Counted from the first letter of the stretch, positions 6,665 through 55,027 are shown. The stretch: DNA of 64,000 nt from Clostridia bacterium (GCA_017444825.1 JAFSVU010000026.1:86009-150008), one strand, 5' to 3'. A program made the numbers and translations. The notes: generated by a model not told the origin, from the letters alone.

Positions 6665-9118
6665 TTAAAGTTTCTTAAGCTTTGTGTACTGCATCGCAAA
6701 CCGTTTCAAGCCAAACTTCTCAAAAGATATCTCACATATCCTGTCGTCCCGGTCAGCGGTCAATTCCCCCTCAATGGAGGTGACAAGGCCCTCACCGAAC
6801 TTGGGATGGGCTACGTGATCTCCGATCCTGATGTCCTTATCGCCGGCCTTCGCGCCAAGCCTTGCCTCTTCAAGCTTTACCGACGTTGTGTTAAGAGGCT
6901 TCCCGGCTGTAAAAACTTTCTTATTTATAGGCTTCTGATCATCGCCAAAGGGATCGTCATCAAAGGAAGGGAACAATGATGAAGACCTGTTATCCCCGCC
7001 GTTCTTTTTTCCGTATGAGCCGAATGAAGAATATCCGTTCCTGCCGTAGCCTCTGTATCCGTAGCCCTGATTTTCGGAATTTCCGTAAGTAAGATAATCG
7101 CCTTTGTCGCCATAGGAAACGTAGCCGGTATAACTTCTCCCTGTGGCGGCTCTTTCAGATATCTCTTCTCCCAGATAATTAACATACTTTGAATTCTCTT
7201 GGGGAATTCCGTCTAAGAACTCGGACTTGGGATTGAATTTTGTCTGGCCGTAGAGCATGCGTTCTTTCACATATGAAAGATAGAGCCTCTCTTTAGCTCT
7301 TGTTATCGCAACGTAGCAGAGCCTACGCTCCTCGTCAATATTGCCCTCGTCCATGGCCCTGATAGTCGGGAATATGCCCTCCTCCATGGCTACAACGAAC
7401 ACGACAGGGAACTCAAGTCCTTTGCTGCTGTGGATAGTCATAAGGGTGACTTTATCGGAATCGTCTTCTTCCTTCGCATCCATGTCTGTAGTGAGGGAAA
7501 TGTTCTGAAGGAATCCGGCAAGTGAATTCTCGAGAGTTGAGTCCTGCTCCGTGGCGGTAACGTAATCCTTGGCGACTGTGACAAACTCCATAAGGTTTCC
7601 GCAGCGGTCCTCATCCTTTTCTTTGTCGCTGGCCTCGTAAAAATATCTGAGCCCCATCTCCTCGTTTACAAGCTCCACAAACTCCGGAACGGAAAGGTCC
7701 GGAAGCTTTGAAGCCACATTTTCATAGCAGTCTGCAAAGTCTTTCAGCGAAACGGCGTATCTTGAAAGCTCGGGATAGTCCTTGACGTTTGCGGCCACTT
7801 CCACAGGCGTGATATGATTTCTGTTTGCGATCTGAATGATGGTCTCAACGCCCTTGTCGCCAATGGACCGCTTCGGGATGTTGATGATGGATGTGAAAGC
7901 ATTGGCGTCACCGGGGCTTTCAAACAGACGTAGATAATTGATGAGAACCTTGACCTCGGCCCGCTCAAAGAAGCGCATGCCGCCGTAGACTCTTAGCGGA
8001 AGCGCACGTCTCACAAATTCCGATTCGAGATACTGGGAAAGAGCATTCTGCCTGTAAAGGATAGCAATGTCCTCGTAACCGTATTTGCCGGAGGACACAA
8101 GCCTTGAGATCTCGCCCGCGATGAATCTGCTCTCGTCCAGCTGATTCTCACCGATGAACCTGGCGATCTTTTCACCGCCCTTTTTGGCTGTCCAGAGTTT
8201 CTTTTCCTTTCTGGATCCGTTGTTCTCCGAGATAACGCTGTTAGCAGCGTCAAGGATATTCTTGGTAGAGCGGTAGTTCTGCTCAAGCTTGATCACAGTG
8301 CAGTCGGGAAAATCCTTCTCAAAGCTTAATATATTGTTTATATCAGCTCCTCTGAAGCTGTAGATCGACTGGTCGTCGTCACCCACCACGCAAAGGTTTC
8401 CGTGAGGCGAAAGGAGTCTCACAAGAAGGTACTGGACCTTGTTTGTGTCCTGGTACTCGTCAACCATTATATATCTGTACCTGGTGGCGTAAAAATCGCA
8501 TACGTCGGGATGGTCCTTAAGAAGCTGTACCGCCTTCACAAGCATGTCATCGAAGTCAAGCGCATTGTTCTCAAACATTTTCTGATCGTAAAGCCTGTAT
8601 ACCTTAAGAAGGGTCCTGTCCTGAGGATTGTGAGGATTCAGCATCCTTGAATACTCATCCGGCGAAGTCATATTGTTCTTGAGCTTGGAAATGAGAGCCC
8701 TGTAAAGCCCCGGGTTCTCTTTCTTCGCGTCCATTTCCAGATCCTTGAAGCAGTCCTTAATGACCCTTTCTGTATCCTTCTCGTCATAGATGGCAAACGA
8801 AGAAGTATAACCAATGAGCTGCGCCCTGTCCCTTAGGATCTGACCGCAGAACCTGTGAAAGGTGCTGATAAAAGCGCCTCTTGACTCATCGCCAAGCATG
8901 CTCTCGACCCTTTCGCGCATCTCCCGCGCGGCCTTGTTGGTAAACGTTATAGCAAGGATATTGTACGGAGAAACACCGTACCGCTCAATGAGATAAGCGA
9001 TACGGTAGGTTATGACCCTGGTCTTTCCGCTGCCTGCGCCCGCAAGTATCAGCACCGGCCCGTCTTTTTGAGTCACAGCTTTATACTGTTCCGGATTTAG
9101 TTCCTGTTCGTAATTCAT
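6665..9118 (-). CDS. pcrA: ATP-dependent DNA helicase PcrA (UvrD family) with a Gly/Tyr/Ser-rich low-complexity linker before the C-terminal Tudor-like domain
   Basis: MNYEQELNPEQYKAVTQKDGPVLILAGAGSGKTRVITYRIAYLI... (helicase motif I), plus DEYQDTN and the other SF1 motifs. The ATG at 9118 lies 1 nt after the rlmB stop. The alternative ATG at 9160 adds 14 aa. Confidence 0.9.
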   Translation of the reverse strand: MNYEQELNPEQYKAVTQKDGPVLILAGAGSGKTRVITYRIAYLIERYGVSPYNILAITFTNKAAREMRERVESMLGDESRGAFISTFHRFCGQILRDRAQLIGYTSSFAIYDEKDTERVIKDCFKDLEMDAKKENPGLYRALISKLKNNMTSPDEYSRMLNPHNPQDRTLLKVYRLYDQKMFENNALDFDDMLVKAVQLLKDHPDVCDFYATRYRYIMVDEYQDTNKVQYLLVRLLSPHGNLCVVGDDDQSIYSFRGADINNILSFEKDFPDCTVIKLEQNYRSTKNILDAANSVISENNGSRKEKKLWTAKKGGEKIARFIGENQLDESRFIAGEISRLVSSGKYGYEDIAILYRQNALSQYLESEFVRRALPLRVYGGMRFFERAEVKVLINYLRLFESPGDANAFTSIINIPKRSIGDKGVETIIQIANRNHITPVEVAANVKDYPELSRYAVSLKDFADCYENVASKLPDLSVPEFVELVNEEMGLRYFYEASDKEKDEDRCGNLMEFVTVAKDYVTATEQDSTLENSLAGFLQNISLTTDMDAKEEDDSDKVTLMTIHSSKGLEFPVVFVVAMEEGIFPTIRAMDEGNIDEERRLCYVAITRAKERLYLSYVKERMLYGQTKFNPKSEFLDGIPQENSKYVNYLGEEISERAATGRSYTGYVSYGDKGDYLTYGNSENQGYGYRGYGRNGYSSFGSYGKKNGGDNRSSSLFPSFDDDPFGDDQKPINKKVFTAGKPLNTTSVKLEEARLGAKAGDKDIRIGDHVAHPKFGEGLVTSIEGELTADRDDRICEISFEKFGLKRFAMQYTKLKKL

Positions 9119-9119
9119 A

Positions 9120-9932
9120 TTATTTATTGTTTCTGTGTGTCCTCTGTCTGAAAACTTCATAAAGTACTACGCCGGCGGCAACGGAAGCGTTAAGCGAAGA
9201 AACTGTGCCGGCCATGGGAATGTTTACAGTGTAGTCGCACTTTTCGGCAACAAGCCTTCCCATGCCTTCCGCCTCGTTTCCGATGACCACCGCAACAGGC
9301 CCCGAAAAGTCAGCATTATAAAACGTGGTCTTCCCGTCAGCTGCGGTACCGGTCACCCAAAGGCCTTTCTTTTTGAGCTCCTCAATGGTATTTACTATAC
9401 TCGGAACTCTGGCAACCTTCACGTAGCTCACAGCACCCGAGGATGCTTTAGCGACCGCACCCGTAAGAGGCACCGCCCGTCTCTTGGGAATAATAATTCC
9501 GTGCGCACCAACGGCGTCGGCAGTTCTGATTATGGCGCCAAGATTTCCGGCATCCTGGATCTCGTCAAGAATAATTATAAAAGGATCCTCGCCCTTTTCC
9601 TCCGCAAGCTTTAAAATGTCATCCACGTCAGCGTAGTCTGCTGCAGCCACGTATGCGGCGACACCCTGGTGATTACCGTTTCCGCAGAGCTCGTCAAGTT
9701 TTTCTCTGGACTGTTTTACGACCACGATGTTATTGCTTTTGGCCTCAGCGATAATTGCTCCGAGACTTCCGGACATCTCGCCGGAAAAGCAGATCTTATT
9801 GATCGAGCGTCCCGACTTTAAAGCCTCCTGGACCGTATTTCTTCCGTAAATGATCTCGTGGGAGGTCTCGCCCGGTGCCTCTGAAACCCGTTTCTTGTCG
9901 GGTCTGTATTTATTACCCCGTCCGTAACTCAT
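9120..9932 (-). CDS. rlmB: 23S rRNA (guanosine-2'-O)-methyltransferase RlmB (SpoU/TrmH family)
   Basis: N-terminal L30e-like substrate-binding region (IYGRNTVQEAL) followed by a SPOUT domain (VAVVIGNEAEGMGRLV...NIPMAGTVSSLNASVAAGVVLYE). Confidence 0.8.
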   Translation of the reverse strand: MSYGRGNKYRPDKKRVSEAPGETSHEIIYGRNTVQEALKSGRSINKICFSGEMSGSLGAIIAEAKSNNIVVVKQSREKLDELCGNGNHQGVAAYVAAADYADVDDILKLAEEKGEDPFIIILDEIQDAGNLGAIIRTADAVGAHGIIIPKRRAVPLTGAVAKASSGAVSYVKVARVPSIVNTIEELKKKGLWVTGTAADGKTTFYNADFSGPVAVVIGNEAEGMGRLVAEKCDYTVNIPMAGTVSSLNASVAAGVVLYEVFRQRTHRNNK

Positions 9933-13486: not shown

Positions 13487-15010
13487 CTATAATTGTTTAC
13501 CTGATTTTTTAGAATTGTGAGCAACAAGCGCGATCGCTAGTATCATAAGCGGAACAACAAACACCAATATTATCACCGCACAAACCAGTACCTTATGTTC
13601 GCTTGAAAACGCGATAGTCCTGTCAACTCCCTCGGAAAAAGCATATTTATTGACGTACCCGGAGGACGCACCGGGGGAAGAAATTTCCATTGGTTTTGAC
13701 GTGGCTTCTTCAGGGATCAGTACGTCAAGGGCATCAAAGAGTTTATCACCGCCAGAGTAACGCTGGAGTGAATTATCGACGATATCAAGGATATAAAGCT
13801 GTTTCGCGCCGCCGTTTTTGGAACCGTAAACGAGGAACTGAGTATCCTTGCCCCTGTAGGCTCTGATACCTGTTATAAACAGTGTCTCAATGGTCTCTCC
13901 CGCCGGCGTATAAACGAAAGTGGTAGCTTTCTCAAATCTCTTTTCCGGGTATACCCTGGCAAGGTATTTATCTACGTCATAGAACGTAAAAGTGTTGCCT
14001 GCGATATTGTCGTATTCCATAACGAAAAGGTCTCCGTCGCCGTCAAGTCCCGGTGTGGGTGTGGGAGCAGTAGTATCTTCCGGAGCTACCGATGGGGTGA
14101 CCGTCGGAGTTTCAGTCGGCTTTTCAGTTATTTCAGGCGTGATAGCAGGAGATTCGGAAGGATTTTCGGAAGCGTCCGGAGTTTCAGAAGCATCAGGCGT
14201 CGGCGTCGGAGTAGGCGTCGGAGAAGGTGTGGGAGTCGGGGTGGGAGTCACCGGATCCGGTGCTTTTGCCCTTATGACGTTAACAGAATAAACTTTTTCA
14301 TTACCGTTTTCCGCAGTGACCGTAATGGTCCTCACGTTGTTCCCTACCTTAAGGAACTCGGTTCCCGAGAGAGCGCTCTTTGCCGAGCTGTCCTCAAGTC
14401 CGAAATACATGTAGCAGACGTCAACGTTATTGGCGACGTTTACCGTATATGTCAGGGTCTCCTTATTGAATTTGGGATTAAGAGTGCCTACCGAAGGCTC
14501 GATAAATTTCAGATAGCAGTTGGATGATTTTTCTTTGTTTGATATTCCAAGTGTGGCATTGGTTATAGCGACGTCCATTATGTCGTCCTTGCCCTGCTCG
14601 GGAATGAGCCTTAAGGCCATGTGGTCGGTGATGGTAAAGTTACAGGTTCCGACCGCTTTGCTCTTGAACGTGTATTGGCGTGTGAATGATCTTGAATTCT
14701 GACCCTGGGAAAAGTCCACCTGCTCGCTGATGATGCCCGCCGCCTGGGAGACGTTGTCGCCGGAAATGAATGTGACCTTTGAATTATCATATTCAAATTT
14801 GAAGGAAACGTAGGCGGAATCAACGCTGCTCGTATATGTTAGCGTGAGCTTGAATTCGGTGTTTTCCCTTACTTCATTGGTGCTGAGTGTGAGCTTAAGA
14901 CTTGCATCCGAGGCAGCCGAAACGTTGCTCACGAAAAAGCAGCCCGCGATCATAACGACCGCAAGAAAGGCGCAAAATGCGATATGAATTTTAGAATAAG
15001 ATCTCTTCAT
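13487..15010 (-). CDS. Secreted cell-surface protein: signal peptide, cadherin-like beta-sandwich domains, a PT-rich linker, and a C-terminal TM anchor with a basic tail
   Basis: Signal MKRSYSKIHIAFCAFLAVVMIAGCFFVSNVSAAS. Cadherin-like beta-sandwich motif CYLKFIEPSVGTLNPKFNKETLTYTVNV. Linker [21 protein letters not shown]-terminus VLVCAVIILVFVVPLMILAIALVAHNSKKSGKQL. Confidence 0.7.
   Translation of the reverse strand: MKRSYSKIHIAFCAFLAVVMIAGCFFVSNVSAASDASLKLTLSTNEVRENTEFKLTLTYTSSVDSAYVSFKFEYDNSKVTFISGDNVSQAAGIISEQVDFSQGQNSRSFTRQYTFKSKAVGTCNFTITDHMALRLIPEQGKDDIMDVAITNATLGISNKEKSSNCYLKFIEPSVGTLNPKFNKETLTYTVNVANNVDVCYMYFGLEDSSAKSALSGTEFLKVGNNVRTITVTAENGNEKVYSVNVIRAKAPDPVTPTPTPTPSPTPTPTPTPDASETPDASENPSESPAITPEITEKPTETPTVTPSVAPEDTTAPTPTPGLDGDGDLFVMEYDNIAGNTFTFYDVDKYLARVYPEKRFEKATTFVYTPAGETIETLFITGIRAYRGKDTQFLVYGSKNGGAKQLYILDIVDNSLQRYSGGDKLFDALDVLIPEEATSKPMEISSPGASSGYVNKYAFSEGVDRTIAFSSEHKVLVCAVIILVFVVPLMILAIALVAHNSKKSGKQL
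14080..14285. repeat. Proline/threonine-rich linker coding repeat, (CCN-ACN)n, within the surface protein gene
   Basis: DNA shows ggcgtcggagtaggcgtcggagaagg... periodicity, matching the PTPTPTP stretch in the translation. Confidence 0.7.
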
Positions 15011-15037: not shown

Positions 15038-17401
15038 TTAATTTGGCTGCACCAGTTTTGCGATATCCCAAACGTGTCTCTTGATGTAGAGGAAGTCAAG
15101 AGGCGTCACAGAATTGACGGCAGCAATATTTTTAGTCGAAACGGCTCCCGCCACCAGCCAGATGTCGGCAAGCTCCGATATGCCCCAGACATGGCGTTTT
15201 ACGTAAAGAAAATCAAGTGCATTGATCACTCCGTCACCGGTAACATCGCCAAAGAGTACCACCTTGAACGTGGCAAGTGTGTCACCTGTTATAACGGACT
15301 TTACTGTCACAACTGAACCTGTGGATATGATGCTGTCGCCTGTTATCACCTGGCCGTTTTTATTTTTGACCTCTACGGAGGTGTTGGTCAGTTCGAACTT
15401 TGAAAGGAATTCGGAGACCTTCATGTTTTCCGATATTCCATAGACGATATTTCCGGAAGAAGCAGTGCCGGATGTAGGGAGAGATACACTGTACTCTACA
15501 ACAGGCGTTGGAGTGGGAGTGGGTGTGGGTGGGGGTGTGGGCGTCACGTTAACTGTCGGTGTCGGCGTCGGCGTGGGAGTTGGCGTCGGGGTCGGAGTAG
15601 GTGTGGGTGTGGGTGTCGGCGTCGGCGTTGGTGTCGGCGTCGGGGTCGGCGTTGGTGTCGGCAGCGGCGGATCGAACTCCTCTTCGCTTCTCAAAATGGT
15701 TATGGTATAAAGACCTGCGTCTCCCCGCTGAGATTTGGTTACGATCTCAAATACGTTCTCGCCAATGTAAAGCGTCTTCTCTCCGAGACCGCTTACGGAT
15801 GTGTTTGAATTGATGGGCTCGGCTGTAAGGTTGACCTTACTGATGCTCTTCGGGAGTCTCAAGGTGTAGCTGAAAACACCGGATTCAAAAGTCGGGCTGA
15901 TGATATAATCGCCGACCTTGATGCTTTTAAGTCTGTAATTGGGGTTTCCGTCCTTTGTGGGACACGGGCAGGAAAGCTCCGGAATATCGAGGTATACCGG
16001 GATCTTAAACAAAAACGAGGATTCGAACAGCCCTGCGGATTCGTACGTATTCTTTACGTTCATACTCTCCGAGGTGGCGGCCTCAATGTTCTGCATGTAT
16101 TGGTGCCAGAATCTGCTGAAATATTCGCCCTCCACGTCAAATTTCTGAAGGTAGAAGGTGTCCTGACCCTTGGTTATGTAGTTCATGCCAACTTTTTTGC
16201 TTCCGCCGGCAAGGGCAAGATAAGGAGTGGTCCAGCCCTCGCGTCTTGCCTCCGCAAAACCGTTTGCGTATATCTGAGCATTGGTGGAGCCCGCGGCCTC
16301 TATGTTGAAATAGTTGTACAGGCCTTCATATCCCGGCTCAACACCTGATATCAGCGGACTCTTACCGAGTCCCTGTTCCTGTCTAACCCTTGCGGCCAGC
16401 ATGAGCGGATTCACATTATTAAGCTCACCGAGTCTCATAAAAGCCTGAGCATAGGTGATGTCTCTACCGTCCTCGTCGCCCATAGGCACGTTGGCGTGGG
16501 ACATAAAAGTACCGCTGAGAAGCTTTTCGACGCTCGCCTCGGTAACCACGTCAGGGTTGTATGAAAGCTGTTCAAACTGGAATATATGCTTCTCGTTGAG
16601 GAAGTTCCTGGGATCAAGGAAATAGTCGATAAGTTCATACGAAGCGCATGTAAAATAAGGACCCGAAACACCGACCCAGGCATCCTTGTCCCAGTCGAAG
16701 GCCCCCGGCCTCAAAGATTTCCATGAGGATATGGCAGTGACTTCGATGTCGTTTGAGTTGAATTCATATTCAGCGGCAAGGACAGTCTGCCAGCTGAGGT
16801 CCGTCTGAAAAGCCTTAAACCTCCATTCAGGATGGAGGTAATGAAGGACTCTGAGATAAAGTCTGTATGACTCGGGAAAGCCCTCCTCATCCATGAGAGC
16901 CTCAAATTCGGGATCGCTCGAAGGCGCAACCAAACCAATGTATTGAGCCGAAACATAGCCGTATTTTCTGGCAGAGCCATTGGCGTAACTGACGTAATAC
17001 CAGGCGCTGTCGCTTACAAAAACCCTGCCGTGGATCTCAATGACCGTTCCGTATTTAAGTGAGTCGAGTATAGTCGATTCTGTGGAGGGACCCTCTCTGA
17101 CTCTGAGTGAGCTGTCGGTATAGACGTCCACGTATCCGCAAAGTGTCCTGCTGAAGAGCTGAAGCTCGCCTTCTTCTCCGGGAGGTATGCTGCCGGGATC
17201 GTGGGGTCCCGGAGTTTCGGTGGGTACAGGGGTCTCAGTTTCCGAAGGAACGGGAGTATCGGTTGCAGTAGGTGACTGATCCGGGTCCTCTCCGTGGACT
17301 GTCAGTCCTCCCGAAATAAAAGAAAAGAACATAACGACAGCAAGAAGTACGCAAAACAGCTTCGTAAGCCTTATGTGCTTTTCCTGCAAAGTCATGTTCA
17401 T
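15038..17401 (-). CDS. Dockerin-containing multidomain peptidoglycan hydrolase: signal/TM, SH3b, glucosaminidase (mannosyl-glycoprotein endo-beta-N-acetylglucosaminidase-like), cadherin-like beta-sandwich, (PT)n linker, type-I dockerin
   Basis: SH3b: [36 protein letters not shown]. Glucosaminidase-like region: [14 protein letters not shown]. Cadherin-like: [29 protein letters not shown]. About 20 consecutive PT dipeptides. C-terminal duplicated dockerin calcium-binding loops [21 protein letters not shown] and [16 protein letters not shown]. Confidence 0.75.
15505..15690. repeat. (PT)n coding microsatellite: about 30 tandem ACN-CCN dipeptide codons
   Basis: ggcgtcggcgtgggagttggcgtcggggtcggagtaggtgtgggtgtgggtgtcggc... 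On the antisense strand it reads as a spurious (GV)n ORF (15465..15710 +). Confidence 0.8.
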
Positions 17402-45840: not shown

Positions 45841-45968
45841 ACTTCTTATTACTTTGAGCGGCACCCCCTTTTCGCAGCCCTTTTACCTCTTACCTTTTAC
45901 TTATTACTTTGAGCGGCACTCCCTCAAACTATTACTTATTACCTAAGCGGCACCGCTCAAACTAAGTC
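45841..45968 (+). repeat. Three degenerate copies of a dispersed repeat family (core TTACTTATTACYT-N3-GCGGCACYCC); the same family as the 53.3-54.0 kb array
   Basis: acttcttattactttgagcggcaccccc / ttttacttattactttgagcggcactccctcaaac / tattacttattacctaagcggcaccgctcaaac, in the divergent intergenic region. Confidence 0.7.
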
Positions 45969-45970
45969 CC

Positions 45971-45999
45971 TTGTCACTTTCCCCCGAATGTTTTATAAT
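45971..45999 (+). promoter_or_regulatory. Putative sigma-A promoter for the PHP-phosphatase gene
   Basis: TTGTCA, a 17-nt spacer, then TATAAT. GGGAGGTG RBS 7 nt before the ATG at 46020. Confidence 0.5.
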
Positions 46000-48989: not shown

Positions 48990-49066
48990 CGAGATGTGGC
49001 TCAGCTTGGTAGAGCGCTGCGTTCGGGACGCAGAAGTCGCAGGTTCAAATCCTGTCATCTCGACCA
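48990..49066 (+). tRNA. tRNA-Pro (anticodon CGG)
   Basis: 77 nt: CGAGATG-TG-GCTC-AGCTTGGTA-GAGC-G-CTGCG-TTCGGGA-CGCAG-AAGTC-GCAGG-TTCAAAT-CCTGT-CATCTCG-A-CCA. It forms a cloverleaf with a C1:G72 pair, a TTCAAAT T-loop and an encoded CCA. Confidence 0.85.
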
Positions 49067-51543: not shown

Positions 51544-53337
51544 ATGTCCGAATTTTTAACCAAAGAAGACAGACGCACCTGTTACTGCGCCGAGGTATCC
51601 GAGGATATGATCGGCAAAAACATCTGCGTAATGGGCTGGGTGCAGAGAAGACGCGACCTGGGATCATTGGTTTTTATCGACCTTCGCGACAGGACAGGAA
51701 TAGTCCAGCTTGCGTTCGGTGACACCACAGACCCGGAGGTCTTCGAAAAAGCGCTCTCATGCAGGGCTGAATACGTTATTTGCGCTCACGGCATTGTCGT
51801 CAAACGCGGCGGAGCCGTCAACACAAACCTTAAGACAGGTGCCATCGAGATCGACGTAAAATCAATGAAGATACTTTCCGCTGCCCAGACCCCTCCCATC
51901 GAGGTCAATGACAACAGGAAAGTCAAGGACGAGACAGCTCTGAAATACCGCTACCTCGATCTGAGACGTCCCGAGCTTCAGAGAAACATCAAAATGCGCC
52001 ACGAGATCGCGAAAATCGCCAGGGAGTATTATTACGAAAACGGCTTCTACGAGATCGAAACGCCAATGATGATCAAGCCCACTCCCGAAGGCGCCAGAGA
52101 CTACCTGGTTCCCTCAAGGATCCACAAGGGCCACTTTTACGCCCTTCCCCAGTCTCCCCAGATCTACAAGCAGCTCCTGATGGTGGCCGGCTTCGACAGA
52201 TACATCCAGATCGCAAGATGCTTCAGAGACGAGGATCTGAGAGCCGACAGGCAGCCTGAATTCACCCAGATCGACCTTGAAATGTCCTTTGCGACCCAGG
52301 AAGATATCATGGAGATGAACGAGGGCTTCATCAAGCGTGTATTCAAAGAGGTCCTTGGCGTCGAAGTTGAAACGCCGATGCAAAAGCTCACATACGCAGA
52401 ATCAATGAGCCGCTACGGCACGGACAAACCCGACACCAGGTACGGCCTTGAGATCAGAGACCTGACTGATGTAGTTAAAAACGTTGACTTCATTGTTTTT
52501 AAGTCTGCTATTGAAAACGGCGGCAGCGTCCGCTGCATACTGGCTGAGAATTCTGCAGACGTTCTCACCCGCAAGGAGATCGACAAGCTCACCGAACACG
52601 CCAAAGGCATTGGCGCTAAAGGCCTCGCCTACATCCGCTGGACAGAAGATATGCCAAACTGCTCCTTCGCCAAGTTCCTGAAAGAGGGAGAGCTTGACGC
52701 GATAATGAGCGCTGTATCCATGAAAAAAGGCGACGTAATGCTCATCTGCGCTGACAAAGACAAGGTCACCCTTCCGACCCTTGGCGCCCTCCGCCAGATA
52801 GTTGCGAAAAAGCTTGATATCATACCGAAGGACAAGTTCAATTTCCTCTGGATCACGGAGTTTCCTTTCTTTGAGTGGAACGACGAGACAAATCACTGGG
52901 ATGCTATGCACCACCCCTTCACAATGCCGCTGGAGGAGTGCCTGCCCTACCTTGAGACAGACCCCGGAAAGGTCCGCGCCAAGTGCTACGATATGGTGCT
53001 TAACGGAACAGAGCTTCTTTCGGGCTCCATCAGGATCACCGACTGGCAGCTCCAGGAAAAGATGTTTGCGGCTCTCGGCCTCACTCAGGAAGAGATCGAC
53101 AGAAAGTTCGGATTCCTCGTTGACGCCTATAAATACGGCGGACCTCCGCATGGCGGATCAGGCATGGGCCTCGACCGTCTCGCCATGGTCATGTGCGGCG
53201 CAGACAGTCTGAGAGACGTGGTGGCCTTCCCGAAGGTACAGAACGCTTCCGAGCTCATGAGCGGCTGCCCCGCACTGCCGGACGGTGAACAGGTGCTTAA
53301 AGATCTTGGAATTGCTGTGATCGAAACCGAAGAATAA
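51544..53337 (+). CDS. aspS: Aspartate--tRNA ligase
   Basis: N-terminal anticodon-binding OB fold (RTCYCAEVSEDMIGKNICVMGWVQRRRDLGSLVFIDLRDRTGIVQ), class-II motifs (FYEIETPMM; QSPQIYKQLLMVAGFDRYIQIARCFRDEDLRADRQPEFTQID; GGSGMGLDR). 597 aa. Confidence 0.95.
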   Translation: MSEFLTKEDRRTCYCAEVSEDMIGKNICVMGWVQRRRDLGSLVFIDLRDRTGIVQLAFGDTTDPEVFEKALSCRAEYVICAHGIVVKRGGAVNTNLKTGAIEIDVKSMKILSAAQTPPIEVNDNRKVKDETALKYRYLDLRRPELQRNIKMRHEIAKIAREYYYENGFYEIETPMMIKPTPEGARDYLVPSRIHKGHFYALPQSPQIYKQLLMVAGFDRYIQIARCFRDEDLRADRQPEFTQIDLEMSFATQEDIMEMNEGFIKRVFKEVLGVEVETPMQKLTYAESMSRYGTDKPDTRYGLEIRDLTDVVKNVDFIVFKSAIENGGSVRCILAENSADVLTRKEIDKLTEHAKGIGAKGLAYIRWTEDMPNCSFAKFLKEGELDAIMSAVSMKKGDVMLICADKDKVTLPTLGALRQIVAKKLDIIPKDKFNFLWITEFPFFEWNDETNHWDAMHHPFTMPLEECLPYLETDPGKVRAKCYDMVLNGTELLSGSIRITDWQLQEKMFAALGLTQEEIDRKFGFLVDAYKYGGPPHGGSGMGLDRLAMVMCGADSLRDVVAFPKVQNASELMSGCPALPDGEQVLKDLGIAVIETEE

Positions 53338-53340
53338 CAA

Positions 53341-53560
53341 GTAACTGTTAAAGGGAGTGCCGCATCAGGTAATAAGTAAAAGGTAAGAAGTAAAAGGGGC
53401 CCACGTCGACCACATTTCATCGAGGAGCGATTCTTCACGAAGTGAAGCCAAGTGACGAGATGCAAGGTGCGAGACGTGAGCGGTGCCGGACAAAGTAATA
53501 AGTAACGTTGCAAGGGGTGCCGCTTAAGTAATAAGTAAGAAGTACTAAGTAATGAAATAA
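53341..53560 (-). repeat. Inverted-orientation, degenerate copies (at least two) of the TTACTTATTACYT...GCGGCACYCC repeat family
   Basis: The reverse complement of 53341-53400 reads cttttacttcttaccttttacttattacctgatgcggcactcccttt. The reverse complement of 53501-53560 reads tacttcttacttattacttaagcggcaccccttgcaacgttacttattac. Confidence 0.65.
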
Positions 53561-53760
53561 TACTAAGTACTGAAAAATAAGCATATAAGCCACAAAATCG
53601 GAGCCGAGGCATGAAACCAAAGCTCCGCTAATTATTTGTGGCTCGAATTGTTATGTCAGTGCTTCACGTAGTGACTTTTTAACTAATACCTGGTACTTAT
53701 TATTTTGTCAGGTAGCTCTCAAGCCGATTGAGGTTACTTTTACTTAGAACCTCTTACCTA

Positions 53761-54000
53761 TTACTTATTACCTTGGGCGGCACCCCTTCGAACTATTACT
53801 TATTACCTGGGCGGCACCCCTTCGAACTATTACTTATTACCTGGGCGGCACCCCTTCGAACTATTACTTATTACCTGGGCGGCACTCCCTCTAACTATTA
53901 CTTATTACCTGGGCGGCACTCCCTCAAACTATTACTTATTACCTGGGCGGCACACCCTCGAACTATTACTTATTACTTTGGGCAGCACCCCTTGGCGCAG
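53761..54000 (+). repeat. Head-to-tail tandem array of seven ~34-bp units (TATTACTTATTACCTGGGCGGCACCCCTTCGAAC) that abuts the kdgK stop codon
   Basis: Units are contiguous with no spacers and differ by 1-3 substitutions (ccccttcgaac / ctccctctaac / ctccctcaaac / caccctcgaac). This is not CRISPR-like. Confidence 0.85.
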
Positions 54001-54007
54001 CCACCTA

Positions 54008-55027
54008 TTACCTTTTAACTCTCCCCGACGCATCTCCCTTGACCAGCTTTTCCACCTCAGCCACTGTGACCCTGTTAAAGTCACCTTCAATGGTCTGTTT
54101 AAGGCATGAAGCTGCAGTCGCAAAATCAATGGCCGCCTGCGGGTCTTTCCCGGAAAGGATGCCGTAGATAAGGCCTGCGCCGAAGGAATCACCGCCGCCG
54201 ACCCGATCGACGATGTGGATAGAATACCTTGGCGACATATAATAATCTTTTCCGTCGTAAAGAAGAGCCTGCCAGTCGTTGTCATTGGCGGATCTTGAAG
54301 ACCTGAGGGTTATGGCGGCATATTTAAGTCCAAATCTTTGGACAAGCTTTGACGCGACGACCTTGTAGCCCTCCTCGGAGAGAACGCCTTTCGAAGCGTC
54401 CGAATCCTCCGCTTTTATACCGAAAACATCGTTTGCGTCCTCTTCATTCGATATGCAAACGTCCACGTACTGCATAAGATCGGTCATCACTTCCGAGGCC
54501 TTGGCTTTGGACCAGAGCTTTGATCTGTAGTTAATGTCGCAGGAGACAGTGATACCGTTATCCTTTGCGATTATAAGGGCCTCCCGGAGAGCTTCAGCGC
54601 AGCCATCCGAAAGCGCAGGGGTAATGCCGGTAAAGTGGAACCAGCAGCAATCGCGGAATATCTCCTCCCAGTCAAAATCAACGGGTGAGCACTCGGCTAT
54701 GGAGGAACCTGCCCGATCATAAATGCATAAACTCGGACGCTGGGATGCACCTTTCTCCATGTAGTAAATACCGAGACGCTTTCCTCCGCGGACTATACGA
54801 CTTGTATCCACGCCGAAATATCTGAGAGAACTCACTGCTCCGTCACCGATATGGCCTTCGGGCAGCTTTGTTACGTAGCATGAATCGAAGCCGAAATTGG
54901 CAAGAGAAACGGCCACGTTGGCTTCCGCTCCTCCGAAAGTAGCATTCATATTTGAGCTTTGAAAAAATCTTTCATAACCAATTGGCGCAAGCCTCAGCAT
55001 TATCTCACCAAATGTAACGATCTTCAT
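54008..55027 (-). CDS. kdgK: 2-dehydro-3-deoxygluconokinase (PfkB family)
   Basis: MKIVTFGEIMLRLAP...FGGAEANVAVSLANFG and the PfkB C-terminal signature DRVGGGDSFGAGLIYG. Confidence 0.85.
   Translation of the reverse strand: MKIVTFGEIMLRLAPIGYERFFQSSNMNATFGGAEANVAVSLANFGFDSCYVTKLPEGHIGDGAVSSLRYFGVDTSRIVRGGKRLGIYYMEKGASQRPSLCIYDRAGSSIAECSPVDFDWEEIFRDCCWFHFTGITPALSDGCAEALREALIIAKDNGITVSCDINYRSKLWSKAKASEVMTDLMQYVDVCISNEEDANDVFGIKAEDSDASKGVLSEEGYKVVASKLVQRFGLKYAAITLRSSRSANDNDWQALLYDGKDYYMSPRYSIHIVDRVGGGDSFGAGLIYGILSGKDPQAAIDFATAASCLKQTIEGDFNRVTVAEVEKLVKGDASGRVKR

Follow-up and report, generated by a model that had tools for sequence, protein, structure and literature searches.

A 34-bp tandem array and its inverted counterparts in the convergent aspS-kdgK spacer of a Clostridia bacterium: a probable lineage-restricted interspersed repeat family

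Introduction

In a Clostridia bacterium, the convergent genes aspS and kdgK are separated by 670 bp, stop codon to stop codon (53338-54007), and this spacer carries 34-bp units in both orientations. The question raised by the locus is whether these units constitute a mobile element, a genetic switch, an array of protein-binding sites, an RNA element or simply a family of repeats. The spacer was analyzed within the 64,000-nucleotide stretch of DNA that contains it (the window), and compared with related sequences designated below by three-digit L numbers. We consider it probable, although by no wide measure, that the spacer is occupied by a lineage-restricted, modular interspersed repeat family that involves no dedicated genetic system.

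Architecture of the aspS-kdgK spacer

The C-terminus of AspS (...ETEE*) ends at the same position in relatives, and that of KdgK (GRVKR*) is conserved with L043. The parts of the spacer that lie between the two stop codons are listed in Table 1.

Table 1. Features of the aspS-kdgK spacer, its flanking genes and the second repeat locus in the window.
Feature	Coordinates	Strand	Description
aspS, aspartate--tRNA ligase, left flank	51544..53337	+	NCBIfam NF001750, E 1.5e-241; stop TAA 53335-53337
Unit L1, aspS-side block	53338..53397	+	core GGGAGTGCCGC (GTGCCG 53357-53362), then heptamer tract GGTAATAAGTAAAAGGTAAGAAGTAAAAG
Family module, imperfect ~84-nt hairpin	53398..53481	+	apical CTTCAC-GAA-GTGAAG
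Unit L2, CCGGCAC subtype	53479..53505	+	AGCGGTGCCGGACAAAGTAATAAGTAA
Unit L3 and degenerate heptamer tail	53506..53572	+	GGGGTGCCGC at 53514-53523; period-7 and period-14 rows in TRF
Central two-tier hairpin	53587..53644	.	GCCACAAA.../CGGAGC...GCTCCG
Segment inverted between strains	53596..53701	.	opposite orientation in same-species strain L061/L063/L065
Small hairpin, then TTTTT	53655..53680	+	-7.8 kcal/mol, z -2.0
Inner end, kdgK-side block	53694..53757	-	degenerate CCGGCAC-type unit 53694-53721; decayed heptamers 53734-53757
Tandem array, seven 34/35-bp units	53758..53993	-	sense with kdgK; RNA sense GUUCGAAGGGGUGCCGCCCAGGUAAUAAGUAAUA
Terminal partial unit, 14 bp	53994..54007	-	GCGCAGCCACCTA; abuts kdgK stop
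kdgK-like PfkB sugar kinase, right flank	54008..55027	-	NCBIfam; stop 54008-54010
Second locus, three units	45842..45965	-	between -35 boxes of divergent Fe-ADH and hisJ-like promoters

The tandem array on the kdgK side is real. TRF reported it over the whole interval 53758-53993 with a period of 34, 6.9 copies, 94% matches and a score of 384, and a repeat search gave a start-to-start spacing of 34 bp throughout. The core pattern proposed in the initial annotation was matched six times (0.00 expected), and the 11-mer TTACTTATTAC 15 times (0.65 expected). The order of the unit variants is reproduced by independent assemblies (L016-L019); the exact count of identical units, seven here and five in L019, may be affected by short-read assembly. 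Units 2 and 3 of the array are identical, and the remaining ones differ by 1-4 bases, all of them in the tail that follows GCGGCAC. The linker CCTGGGCGGCAC is common to all units of the kdgK-side array and was not seen in other arrays; because it is private to these seven units, they appear to have been amplified locally from one founder. The start of the terminal partial unit (CTGCGC...GGTGC) is also found 3' of the melibiase stop codon in L054.

As the initial annotation had concluded, the array is not a CRISPR array. Its repeat falls within the length range of CRISPR repeats, but the units are contiguous, with neither spacers nor leader. The 42 ORFs of the window were compared with PADLOC and Pfam models, and among the best 25 of 61 PADLOC and the best 25 of 59 Pfam families no cas model, RT, SLATT or transposase domain was present. 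The PADLOC matches listed comprise helicase-type models, including the DRT model RTasHel, and one mad3 model; we attribute the helicase-type matches, RTasHel among them, to the single UvrD/PcrA helicase found in Pfam. The neighborhood consists of syntenic housekeeping genes.

The aspS-side block had been described as at least two degenerate inverted copies. Inverted copies do exist behind aspS, but three cores, not two, were found (53354-53379, 53480-53505 and 53514-53538). Unit L1 is in sense with aspS and begins immediately 3' of its stop codon; it is 98.8% identical to the corresponding sequence of the same-species strain L061 and shares approximately 90% identity with the element of L009 on the pepF side. 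Unit L2 is the left inverted-repeat partner of 53694-53721 (82% complementary), the latter being a degenerate unit in the plus orientation of the initial annotation, and the CCGGCAC subtype of L2 also opens the arrays in L052 and in the L054 dtd spacer. Unit L3 is absent from strain L061. Overall, the complementarity between the two inverted blocks is 76-89%.

The region between the blocks had been taken for a unique center of about 200 bp. This holds for approximately 53573-53693, but the part at 53398-53481 belongs to the family as one of its conserved modules. Using nhmmer, copies of the module were found in L011 (2628-2709, E 1e-20) and in L009/L054 (E 4e-17), where they adjoin unrelated genes; the module is found together with the units only sometimes. 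Its predicted fold is stable in the window (-29.2 kcal/mol, z -2.6) and in L011 (-31.4 kcal/mol, z -4.1), and weak in the L009 copy (z +0.26).

The central hairpin (Table 1) folds to -29.4 kcal/mol on the minus strand (z -5.0), where it is followed by UUAUAUGCUUAUUUUU, and to -22 kcal/mol on the plus strand (z -2.4). Judged by this fold energy and by its position relative to the terminators of relatives, it is probably a shared terminator of aspS and kdgK; a simple terminator scan of the spacer called nothing, the central hairpin included. The small hairpin at 53655-53680 might be a weak candidate terminator for read-through from aspS.

Comparison with relatives and strains

In the syntenic relatives L043, L046 and L049 (KdgK 76-79% identical), the aspS-kdgK spacer measures 77-81 bp and contains one hairpin with A/T runs, and no units were found in approximately 60 kb of these relatives. 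The sister species of the L054 lineage (L057 and L059) have spacers of 82 bp and 17-32 bp at sites where the L054 blocks measure several hundred and 184 bp; the orthologous sites are thus empty in L043, L046, L049, L057 and L059. At the second locus of the window the spacer is approximately 247 bp long, versus 152-154 bp in sister species.

Array length also varies, and together with the occurrence of the motif at other sites (see below) this answers the two refuting conditions of the initial annotation in favor of a dispersed, dynamic element: there are no units in sister species, two in a strain that is approximately 99% identical, and five or seven in the present lineage. The five units of L019 differ from the seven of the window by a clean 68 bp. 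In strain L061, whose flanking genes are 98.4-99.4% identical to those of the window, the spacer is 358 bp long and contains two kdgK-side units. Comparison of the second locus with L067 revealed indels of approximately 32 and 37 bp, that is, one unit either way. The proposal that the near-identity of the seven units reflects recent expansion is therefore supported by the strain comparison.

The center of the spacer is inverted between strains. The center of L061 aligns to the reverse complement of the window sequence with a score of 155 (90.4% over 104 nt), versus a score of 28 for the direct strand. Its divergence between the strains is 10%, as compared with approximately 1% in their flanks, and each orientation is fixed in its lineage over several samples (the window, L019 and L050, as opposed to L061, L063, L065 and L067). 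The inverted center of the sister strain, which had not been mentioned in the initial annotation, is a consequence of the inverted arms.

These observations bear on the possibility that the center is a programmed inverton, with family units as its inverted repeats, and that its flipping would redirect either a terminator or a weak promoter in the aspS-kdgK spacer. The central 105 bp does occur in both orientations among strains with 99%-identical flanks (between strains only), the segment is bounded by inverted units, and it contains a sigma-70-like site, CTGACA-17-AATAAT. However, each orientation is fixed in its lineage over the samples given above, and because the two versions differ by 10% the inversion must be an old event and not rapid switching. 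Moreover, no recombinase domain was present among the best-matching families of the window ORFs (25 of 61 and 25 of 59), the promoter-like site overlaps the central hairpin, and that hairpin is predicted to terminate in either direction. We thus regard a programmed inverton as highly improbable.

It is worth mentioning that the nearest tyrosine recombinase gene lies in L052, approximately 7.8 kb to the left of the window start.

Dispersal of the family

The motif was found elsewhere, as expected for a dispersed family and unlike a one-off duplication: at a second locus in the window (45842-45965) and in L052, L054, L006 and L011. The units of the second locus fill the interval between two promoter-like sites, one at 45842-45814 (-) and the other at 45971-45999 (+), and transcription of this locus is improbable. 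A third locus is located at 22153-22265 of L052, 7.7 kb to the left of the window. Three spacers of L054 carry units, as do L006 and L011 of the Oscillospiraceae MAG RGIG2819. The related contigs with units are goat-gut MAGs, in which the repeats adjoin unrelated genes. In total, at least nine blocks in seven spacers were found over the approximately 100 kb surveyed of family-carrying genomes, so that any genome-wide pattern is an extrapolation from this length.

An exact-pattern scan of the genome collection yielded true members only in L006, L009 and L011, those of L010 and L002 being doubtful. An exact-pattern scan of JGI metagenomes gave only single chance matches, and an IMG/VR scan gave no match for either the unit or the module. 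A blastn search with the whole spacer against phages and plasmids found no match, and nothing relevant was found in Rfam, either at the gathering threshold or at E<=10.

The opposite orientation of the two arms had been considered consistent with a MITE-like or composite element, in which the whole 670 bp would be a single element with the arms as inverted ends and the center as cargo. The arms are indeed inverted, relatives have empty sites, and in L054 a lineage-specific 23S_rRNA_IVP gene between pepF and melibiase is flanked by two opposite arrays. Nevertheless, in the five further spacers of L052, L006, L011, L054 (dtd) and the window (45842), the family occurs in a single orientation without an inverted partner. 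The block ends fall at different unit registers, and hence there is no fixed terminus. The contents of the arms also differ (the module and three units versus 8-9 units), and between strains each arm changes without the other. A direct target duplication is not visible, the spacer being bordered by TAA at one end and TTA at the other, although the richness in TAA/TAG would hide a duplication of 2-3 bp. Taking these data together, a MITE-like or composite element is very unlikely, and the preferable reading of the arms is that of two blocks, independent of each other and both sense-oriented, that flank an ancestral terminator. As for an autonomous element, the best 25 of 59 Pfam families in the window included no transposase domain. 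No homology of the center to the terminators of relatives was detected, so that the term ancestral refers to its position.

An iteron-like array had also been proposed, and the units could more generally be DNA-level binding sites for an initiator-type, nucleoid or recombinase protein. Identical head-to-tail units with an invariant 20-bp core would suit such sites, as would the location of the 45842 locus in probably non-transcribed, promoter-distal DNA. The array is not embedded in a replicon, however: its neighbors are housekeeping genes that are syntenic in relatives devoid of repeats, and neither a plasmid or phage match nor a replication, partition or recombinase gene context was found. 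The same genes lack units in relatives, a period of 34 bp corresponds to a non-integral number of helical turns, and an orientation tied to transcription (see below) would be unexpected for sites in duplex DNA. The iteron claim is not supported, and DNA-level binding sites in general seem scarcely probable.

Orientation of the arrays and composition of the units

All eight arrays that follow a gene are in transcript sense (8/8), a result whose chance probability is 2^-8, or 2^-6 when counted per spacer. The first core is located 0-20 nt from the stop codon, or the stop codon lies within GTTTRAGGGG. The distance is 0 nt for aspS, kdgK, L006, L052, L054 melibiase and L054 dtd, and in L009 and L011 the stop codon is found within the first unit. 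Given that arrays are in sense with the gene they follow, inverted arms are an automatic outcome in a convergent gene pair. The L054 dtd array fills an operon spacer exactly, from the TAA to the next ATG, and ends with ...GGTAAGAGGT|ATG; since it spans this whole interval, a native 17-nt spacer with an AAAGGA SD, as in L057, has been replaced.

In RNA sense, the unit consists of a GC-rich core, GGG(G/A)GUGCCGC, a linker of 4-5 nt and (R)GUAA(K)A heptamers. The core (TTACTTATTAC...GCGGCAC) and the first heptamers are invariant in all copies, and the tail varies. The heptamers are mixed (TTACCTC, TTACTTA and TTACCTT), each tract being interleaved with the GC core.

The two strands of the array differ strongly in composition. 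The initial annotation had noted spurious ORFs on both strands, which holds for the plus (antisense) strand only: it is open, with one stop codon in three frames, whereas the minus (sense) strand carries 30 stop codons through the 236 nt of the array. The 96-aa ORF 53728-54018 is spurious; it had no matches in a set of 5.8 billion proteins. SD-core 4-mers occur at 7.2 per 100 nt in the sense strand and 0.0 in the antisense strand, with a window background of 1.6-2.6, and the C/G ratio is 0.52 in sense and 1.93 in antisense.

The array RNA showed no significant structure, either as a whole (z -0.6) or as a two-unit fold (z -0.75). The unit was also considered as an RNA hairpin and rejected, as it folds no better than shuffled sequences. 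A 3-bp stem around UGCCG (GGG/CCC, GAG/CUC) was rejected as well, its middle pair showing no enrichment beyond base frequencies in 30 units.

The orientation rule and the strand asymmetry raise the possibility that the units function at the RNA level, in transcript sense, within 3' UTRs and intercistronic spacers. An RNA-binding protein or 30S subunits could land on them repeatedly, with the SD-like GGGGUG/GGGAGUG cores and the AAGAGGU heptamers as candidate landing motifs, and the units would then stabilize the upstream mRNA, insulate translation by their stop codons in every frame and supply the ribosome-binding region of the next operon gene; the C-rich antisense strand could serve as a Rho loading site against convergent read-through. 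The sense orientation of every array next to a stop codon, the exact filling of the dtd spacer, the enrichment of SD-core 4-mers to 3-4 times background in sense, and the invariance of the core and first heptamers are all in line with such an element. On the other hand, the same genes are without most or all units in sister species and even in one same-species strain, so that any function must be dispensable and not locus-specific. Additionally, the locus at 45842 is situated between two promoters and probably escapes transcription, and the array has no conserved RNA structure, the UGCCG mini-hairpin being without convincing covariation. We regard a functional RNA element as possible, but doubtful.

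Comparison with known repeat families and other systems

The closest analogues of the present units are MIRU-VNTR and BOX, and the units are best classified as a new family of a familiar type of bacterial repeat and not as a new system. MIRUs are short direct tandem repeats that are found in many intergenic spacers and are missing from the orthologous positions in related species; they are co-transcribed with flanking genes, their unit ends overlap stop and start codons, and their copy number varies between strains (PMC3184786). The present family resembles them in its scattered tandem units, in its consistent sense orientation, in the stop-to-ATG filling in L054 and in the variation among two, five and seven units. 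It differs in that MIRUs are 40-100 bp long and GC-rich and contain small sense ORFs that permit translational coupling, whereas the present units are 34 bp long, include an AT-rich heptamer microsatellite and are dense in sense stop codons. Furthermore, the present family belongs to Clostridia, has no sequence similarity to MIRUs and includes an additional hairpin module. Supply and co-workers are said to have observed, in 1997, that MIRUs point in the same direction as their flanking genes.

The BOX elements of S. pneumoniae (boxA-boxB(n)-boxC, together with SPRITE and RUP) are likewise modular intergenic repeats of a Firmicute, one module of which is amplified variably. In BOX, however, A and C pair into a stable stem-loop and the element is a non-autonomous transposable unit; the present units are non-palindromic, give an unstructured array RNA and have one orientation as a rule. 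Because of this single orientation, no A-C pairing is possible in the present arrays. No relevant Rfam match was found at E<=10.

The REP/BIME elements of Enterobacteria and Pseudomonas are lineage-specific units of about 35 bp that are located between stop codon and terminator or between convergent genes, and they affect mRNA 3' stability, as well as translation when close to a stop codon. The present units are similarly extragenic and lie 3' of genes or between convergent genes. Unlike REPs, imperfect palindromes that usually alternate in orientation inside a BIME and are associated with RAYT transposases, they have no dyad symmetry, are strictly head-to-tail and form no stable hairpin. The STAR elements of Staphylococcus aureus are short GC-rich direct repeats in AT-rich intergenic DNA, with a strain-variable copy number, that are separated by spacers of approximately 40 bp; they are not known to follow a sense-orientation rule. 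The present family differs from STAR by the lack of sequence similarity and of spacers, and by its sense rule.

A relationship to the DRT10/UG17 RT system was also considered, in which the units would be template-like RNAs or integrated RT products. In DRT10/UG17, a structured ncRNA is encoded just 5' of the SLATT and UG17 RT genes, and its template loop, of A-B-A' pattern, specifies the repeat; one such loop, ACUUAUUACU, gives rise to (AGTAATA)n cDNA (bioRxiv 10.64898/2026.04.29.721553). The template loops are poorly conserved among DRT10 homologues, others of which make 9-nt or other repeats (bioRxiv 10.1101/2025.10.16.682844). The unit holds ACTTATTAC(C/T), approximately two copies of the DRT10 heptamer, and the number of heptamers varies in the manner of slippage products. 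Because the loops are so poorly conserved, a heptamer shared with one E. coli system carries little weight, and ACTTATTAC(T) in the units is not diagnostic of a DRT10 template loop. Here the heptamers are mixed, always interleaved with the GC core, and situated in chromosomal DNA flanked by aspS and kdgK, with no adjacent SLATT/RT gene (no RT/SLATT domain being present in the 42 window ORFs among the best families given above). It should be added that this match came to light post hoc, through a string search of the literature. Of all the readings considered, this one has the lowest probability, which is close to negligible.

Two further ideas were rejected. DGR-like homing, suggested by an Avd-like gene beside the L054 arrays, does not fit, as the differences among units are not adenine-specific and none of them falls in the A-rich part. 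For TTAC targeting of the IS200/IS605 type, neither a Y1 transposase nor subterminal hairpin ends were found.

Proposed history of the spacer

The reading that we prefer, a lineage-restricted family of modular interspersed repeats, would account for the spacer as follows. The ancestral spacer would have measured about 80 bp and contained one shared terminator hairpin. Two independent blocks would then have come to lie between each stop codon and the hairpin, each in sense with the preceding gene, and would gain and lose whole units by replication slippage or unequal recombination. As the blocks are mutually inverted, recombination between them may, in one strain lineage, have turned the central segment around. 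The effect on the host would be near-neutral.

Compatibility with gene expression is the simplest explanation of the strict sense orientation, and selection would thus lie behind it. In sense, a unit offers stop codons in three frames and purine-rich, SD-like heptamers; in antisense, it leaves all frames open and is C-rich. An element that supplies stop codons and SD-like heptamers would for this reason be tolerated next to a stop codon, or in an operon in the interval from one stop codon to the following start.

Several observations weigh against a repeat family of this kind. The strictness of the orientation rule and the exactness with which arrays abut stop codons exceed what purely neutral filler would predict, and an insertion 3' of a stop codon should be indifferent to reading frames. 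The invariant core TTACTTATTAC...GCGGCAC with its variable tail could mean a binding site under selection. In the material examined, no seeding mechanism (transposase or target-site duplication) was identified; the difference of seven versus five units may be partly an assembly effect; and the center has diverged by 10%, as opposed to 1% in the flanks.

A more active version can also be envisaged, in which the units are not passive filler but a portable, translation-aware spacer, actively directed to stop codons and inserted there in transcript sense. Targeting could occur, for example, by microhomology between the UAA heptamer and gene ends, or by an RNA/RT-mediated step. The unit would act as a cassette of 3' UTRs and intercistronic spacers with stop codons in all frames and SD-like landing sites, its C-rich antisense strand would block convergent read-through, and inverted blocks would produce invertible terminators. 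Such a spacer is quite unlikely; if it were true, it would represent a class of bacterial repeats in which gene expression is coupled to both spread and orientation. In either case, the orientation of the eight arrays, their abutment to stop and start codons and the strand asymmetry provide a small, testable case for asking whether transcription and translation shape intergenic repeats or are served by them.

Regarding the lineage-restricted repeat family that we favor, it would be an undescribed interspersed repeat family of uncultured ruminant-gut Clostridia/Oscillospiraceae. The presence of two, five or seven units, one inversion and the second locus could provide VNTR markers for strain tracking. 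Finally, many short contigs end within the repeats (L016-18, L020, L062, L064, L066 and L068), and the family explains the breaks of the short-read MAG contigs of this species at such spacers.

Organization of the aspS-kdgK intergenic region

The convergent aspS gene and the gene for a kdgK-like PfkB kinase are separated by 670 bp (53338-54007), whose features are listed in the table. The 34-bp array described in the initial annotation was recovered with Tandem Repeats Finder (period 34, 6.9 copies, 94% matches, score 384), and the core pattern given there matched six times (0.00 expected), while the 11-mer TTACTTATTAC matched 15 times (0.65 expected). The unit-to-unit distance is constant at 34 bp, so the array has no spacers, as had been stated. 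Array units 2 and 3 are identical, and the remaining units vary at one to four positions, only in the tail 3' of GCGGCAC. Behind aspS there are three copies on the opposite strand (cores 53354-79, 53480-505 and 53514-38), and a further degenerate unit at 53694-53721 had been overlooked in the centre. The spurious ORFs reported on both strands apply to the + strand, which reads open through the array, but not to the - strand. The array RNA is unstructured (z -0.6).

Features of the aspS-kdgK intergenic region and locations of the repeat family
Feature	Location	Strand	Remarks
aspS	51544-53337	+	NF001750, E 1.5e-241
Units L1, L2 and L3 with hairpin module	53338-53572	sense on +	directly after aspS stop; order L1, module, L2, L3
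Strong two-tier hairpin, unique centre	53587-53644	-	-29.4 kcal/mol, z -5, U-rich tail
Small hairpin and T5, in centre	53655-53680		RNA folding
Degenerate unit and heptamers	53694-53757
Seven-unit array	53758-53993
Partial unit	53994-54007		followed by kdgK stop
kdgK-like PfkB kinase gene	54008-55027	-
Three family units	45842-45965		second locus in the window
Three family units	L052 22153-22265		longer contig of the same organism, 7.7 kb left of the window
Family units	L006 and L011		contigs of goat-gut Oscillospiraceae MAG RGIG2819
Family units	L054/L009		three spacers

From its position, we infer that the central hairpin is the counterpart of the relatives' only terminator, which is bidirectional, and only infer it, because a search detected no sequence homology between the centre and those terminators. 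Within the invertible centre, at 53659-53631 on the - strand, there is a sigma-70-like site (CTGACA-17-AATAAT, 10/12) that overlaps the hairpin and is unlikely to be functional.

A dispersed and modular repeat family

The 34-bp repeats are a dispersed, modular family. The search beyond the locus suggested in the initial annotation located the motif at 45842-45965 and in L052, L006, L011 and L054/L009, the last being a contig that is binned as Desulfovibrionaceae, yet whose PepF has its relatives in Clostridia. In the RNA sense, the unit consists of a core GGG(G/A)GUGCCGC, a linker of 4-5 nt and a run of heptamers (GUAAUAA, GUAAGAG, GUAAAAG) that varies. No variation is seen in the core and the first heptamers, the variable parts being the tail and the linker. 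The stretch 53398-53481 is also found in L009/L054 and L011, with 90-97% identity and adjoining unrelated genes, so that the sequence regarded as unique is not entirely so. It folds as an imperfect hairpin of ~84 nt (-29 to -31 kcal/mol and z -2.6 to -4.1 in two copies, weak in the third). Since this stretch recurs elsewhere and forms a hairpin, the family comprises at least two modules, the unit and the hairpin. No similar sequence was found in Rfam, phages, plasmids, IMG/VR or JGI metagenomes. Many short contigs end in the repeat interior, as is expected for multi-copy DNA. At 45842-45965, the sequence that separates the -35 boxes of two divergent promoters (Fe-ADH and hisJ-like) is taken up precisely by the units.

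A different repeat of ~65 bp, in two to three direct and two inverted copies around ~110 bp, was observed in the Lachnospiraceae MAG RUI364 (L010 590-1080); it has TTACTTATTAC-N5-GCGGCACCC in common with the family and could represent either a related family or an invertible element.

Comparison with relatives and strains

The syntenic sister species L043, L046 and L049 have the same gene order (KdgK 76-79% identical), an aspS-kdgK spacer of 77-81 bp with a single hairpin between A and T runs, and no family units within ~60 kb. The hisJ/Fe-ADH spacer measures 152-154 bp in syntenic relatives versus ~247 bp in the window. Sister species of the L054 lineage (PepF 83-84% identical) have spacers of 82 bp and 17-32 bp, and the repeats at these sites of L054 extend over several hundred bp and 184 bp. 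Given these short spacers, the repeats are lineage-specific gains.

Copy number differs among strains, as a comparison proposed in the initial annotation brought out: seven units in the window, five in L019, which has identical flanks and a clean 68-bp gap that may be an assembly effect, and two on the kdgK side of a strain represented in three samples or more (L061/L063/L065; kdgK 99.4%, aspS 98.8% and eda 98.4% identical to the window). The spacer of this strain is 358 bp long, with L1-module-L2 at 98.8% identity and without L3. Unit-size indels also distinguish the 45842-45965 locus of the window from that of L067, of the same strain. The spacer is a hotspot for the gain and loss of units. 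A single MITE or composite element spanning the spacer, as initially suggested, is unlikely, because arrays of one orientation are the rule elsewhere and the two arms change independently; an iteron array finds no support in the context.

The centre of the L061 strain (~105 bp, L061 5100-5210) matches the reverse complement of 53596-53701 (score 155, 90.4% identity), with a score of only 28 against the direct strand, and is likewise inverted in L063, L065 and L067. This inversion was probably mediated by the inverted blocks. The inverted segment is ~90% identical and the flanking genes ~99%, a tenfold higher divergence. A programmed inverton at the centre is possible but unsupported, with an orientation that is fixed within each lineage and two versions that are 10% diverged.

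Orientation relative to genes

Eight arrays follow a gene, namely aspS, kdgK, a 569-aa gene in L052, pepF, the L054 melibiase gene and dtd, and the upstream genes in L006 and L011. In all eight, the GGUGCCGC...GUAAUAAGUAA strand is the mRNA strand of that gene (chance 2^-8, or 2^-6 per spacer). The first core begins 0-20 nt past the stop, or the stop lies within the unit (GTT TGA GGGG in L009, GTT TAA GGGG in L011). The array at L054 13806-13989 fills precisely the interval between the dtd TAA and the ATG of the downstream gene, which encodes an MBL-fold hydrolase. It stands in place of the SD-bearing 17-nt spacer of the sister species, and the ribosome-binding region of the hydrolase gene is made of family heptamers (...GGTAAGAGGT directly before ATG). 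The blocks end at differing unit registers, and there is therefore no fixed terminus. The two cases not following a gene in sense are the 45842 locus and a heptamer-plus-module copy in L011, which adjoins the stop of a convergent gene.

The sense strand has 30 stop codons in three frames versus one in antisense, 7.2 SD-core 4-mers per 100 nt versus 0 (background 1.6-2.6), and a C/G ratio of 0.52 versus 1.93. The end of kdgK (54008-54016) reads AAA AGG TAA in the window and in L061, and AAA CGT TAA in the repeat-free L043 (11012-11020). Gene ends resemble heptamers, and that of kdgK itself has the look of one from the family (AAAGGTAA); this is a speculative hint of microhomology or overwriting at the junction.

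The main alternative is that the units act at the RNA level in intercistronic spacers and 3' UTRs, for instance by binding a protein or 30S subunits, by insulating or coupling translation, or by Rho loading on the antisense strand. This would better account for orientation and abutment, but the units can be dispensed with in a strain that is 99% identical, and one of the loci is apparently not transcribed; we regard such a role as rather unlikely. We somewhat favor an interspersed family of modular repeats located in intergenic space that is dispensable. Two independent blocks, both in sense, would have been added, each of them between the terminator that the two genes share and one of the stop codons. 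On the kdgK side, the block would have been amplified locally from a single founder unit, as suggested by the private linker CCTGGGCGGCAC common to all its units. Unit number may change through slippage or unequal recombination, and recombination between the opposed blocks would have inverted the centre. The orientation rule would most simply be a compatibility constraint, the sense strand offering stops and SD sequences and the antisense strand being open and C-rich; together with the stop-codon rule, it would matter more only if it reflected an active, expression-coupled mechanism.

Relation to known repeats

The closest analogue is the mycobacterial MIRU, whose units, according to Supply et al. 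in 1997, reportedly run in the same direction as the flanking genes. MIRUs are tandem intergenic units co-transcribed with flanking genes, with ends overlapping stop and start codons and strain-variable copy number, and are missing from orthologous sites of relatives (PMC3184786). Their defining sense ORF for translational coupling is absent here, because the sense strand is rich in stops. Analogues in functional position are BOX, a modular element with one tandem module of variable number, and REP/BIME, of ~35 bp and located between a stop codon and a terminator, but their hairpin or palindrome features are not found here. Considering these likenesses and differences, the sequence family is new and its kind already known.

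A full-text literature search with the 11-mer led to a 2026 preprint on DRT10/UG17 (bioRxiv 10.64898/2026.04.29.721553), in which the reverse transcriptase of one E. coli system makes (AGTAATA)n from the ncRNA loop ACUUAUUACU. This cDNA heptamer is identical to one in the family units. Conservation of the DRT10 template loops is poor, and the repeats made by other homologues differ (bioRxiv 10.1101/2025.10.16.682844). Among the best 25 of 61 and best 25 of 59 families for 42 window ORFs there was no RT or SLATT domain, and the PADLOC matches listed were helicase-type models, attributed to a single UvrD/PcrA helicase in Pfam, and one mad3 model. A relation to DRT10/UG17 was rejected on account of the varying loops, the lack of RT/SLATT among the families listed and the mixed heptamers interleaved with a GC core; the match is almost certainly a coincidence.

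Additional observations

In L054, pepF and the melibiase gene are separated by a lineage-specific insert of 1.4 kb. It carries a 128-aa 23S_rRNA_IVP (Avd-like four-helix-bundle) gene (L054 4597-4983; L009 4644-4890), with oppositely oriented arrays on either side, and a TIR-domain gene lies upstream of pepF. Relative to L052 and window 6665-9160, contig L053 from sample ERZ28654444 (5228-7760 and 12611-15300) has a PcrA/UvrD-like helicase gene interrupted by two ORFs with no Pfam match and a split valS; the cause is variation between strains or else an artefact of assembly. GC-rich hexamer/24-mer (GTCGGC)n and 12-mer tandem repeats at 15513-15669 and 14103-14249, in long - strand ORFs, are probably low-complexity coding repeats. 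The only gathering-level Rfam match in the window is a single tRNA gene at 48990-49063 (RF00005, 67 bits).
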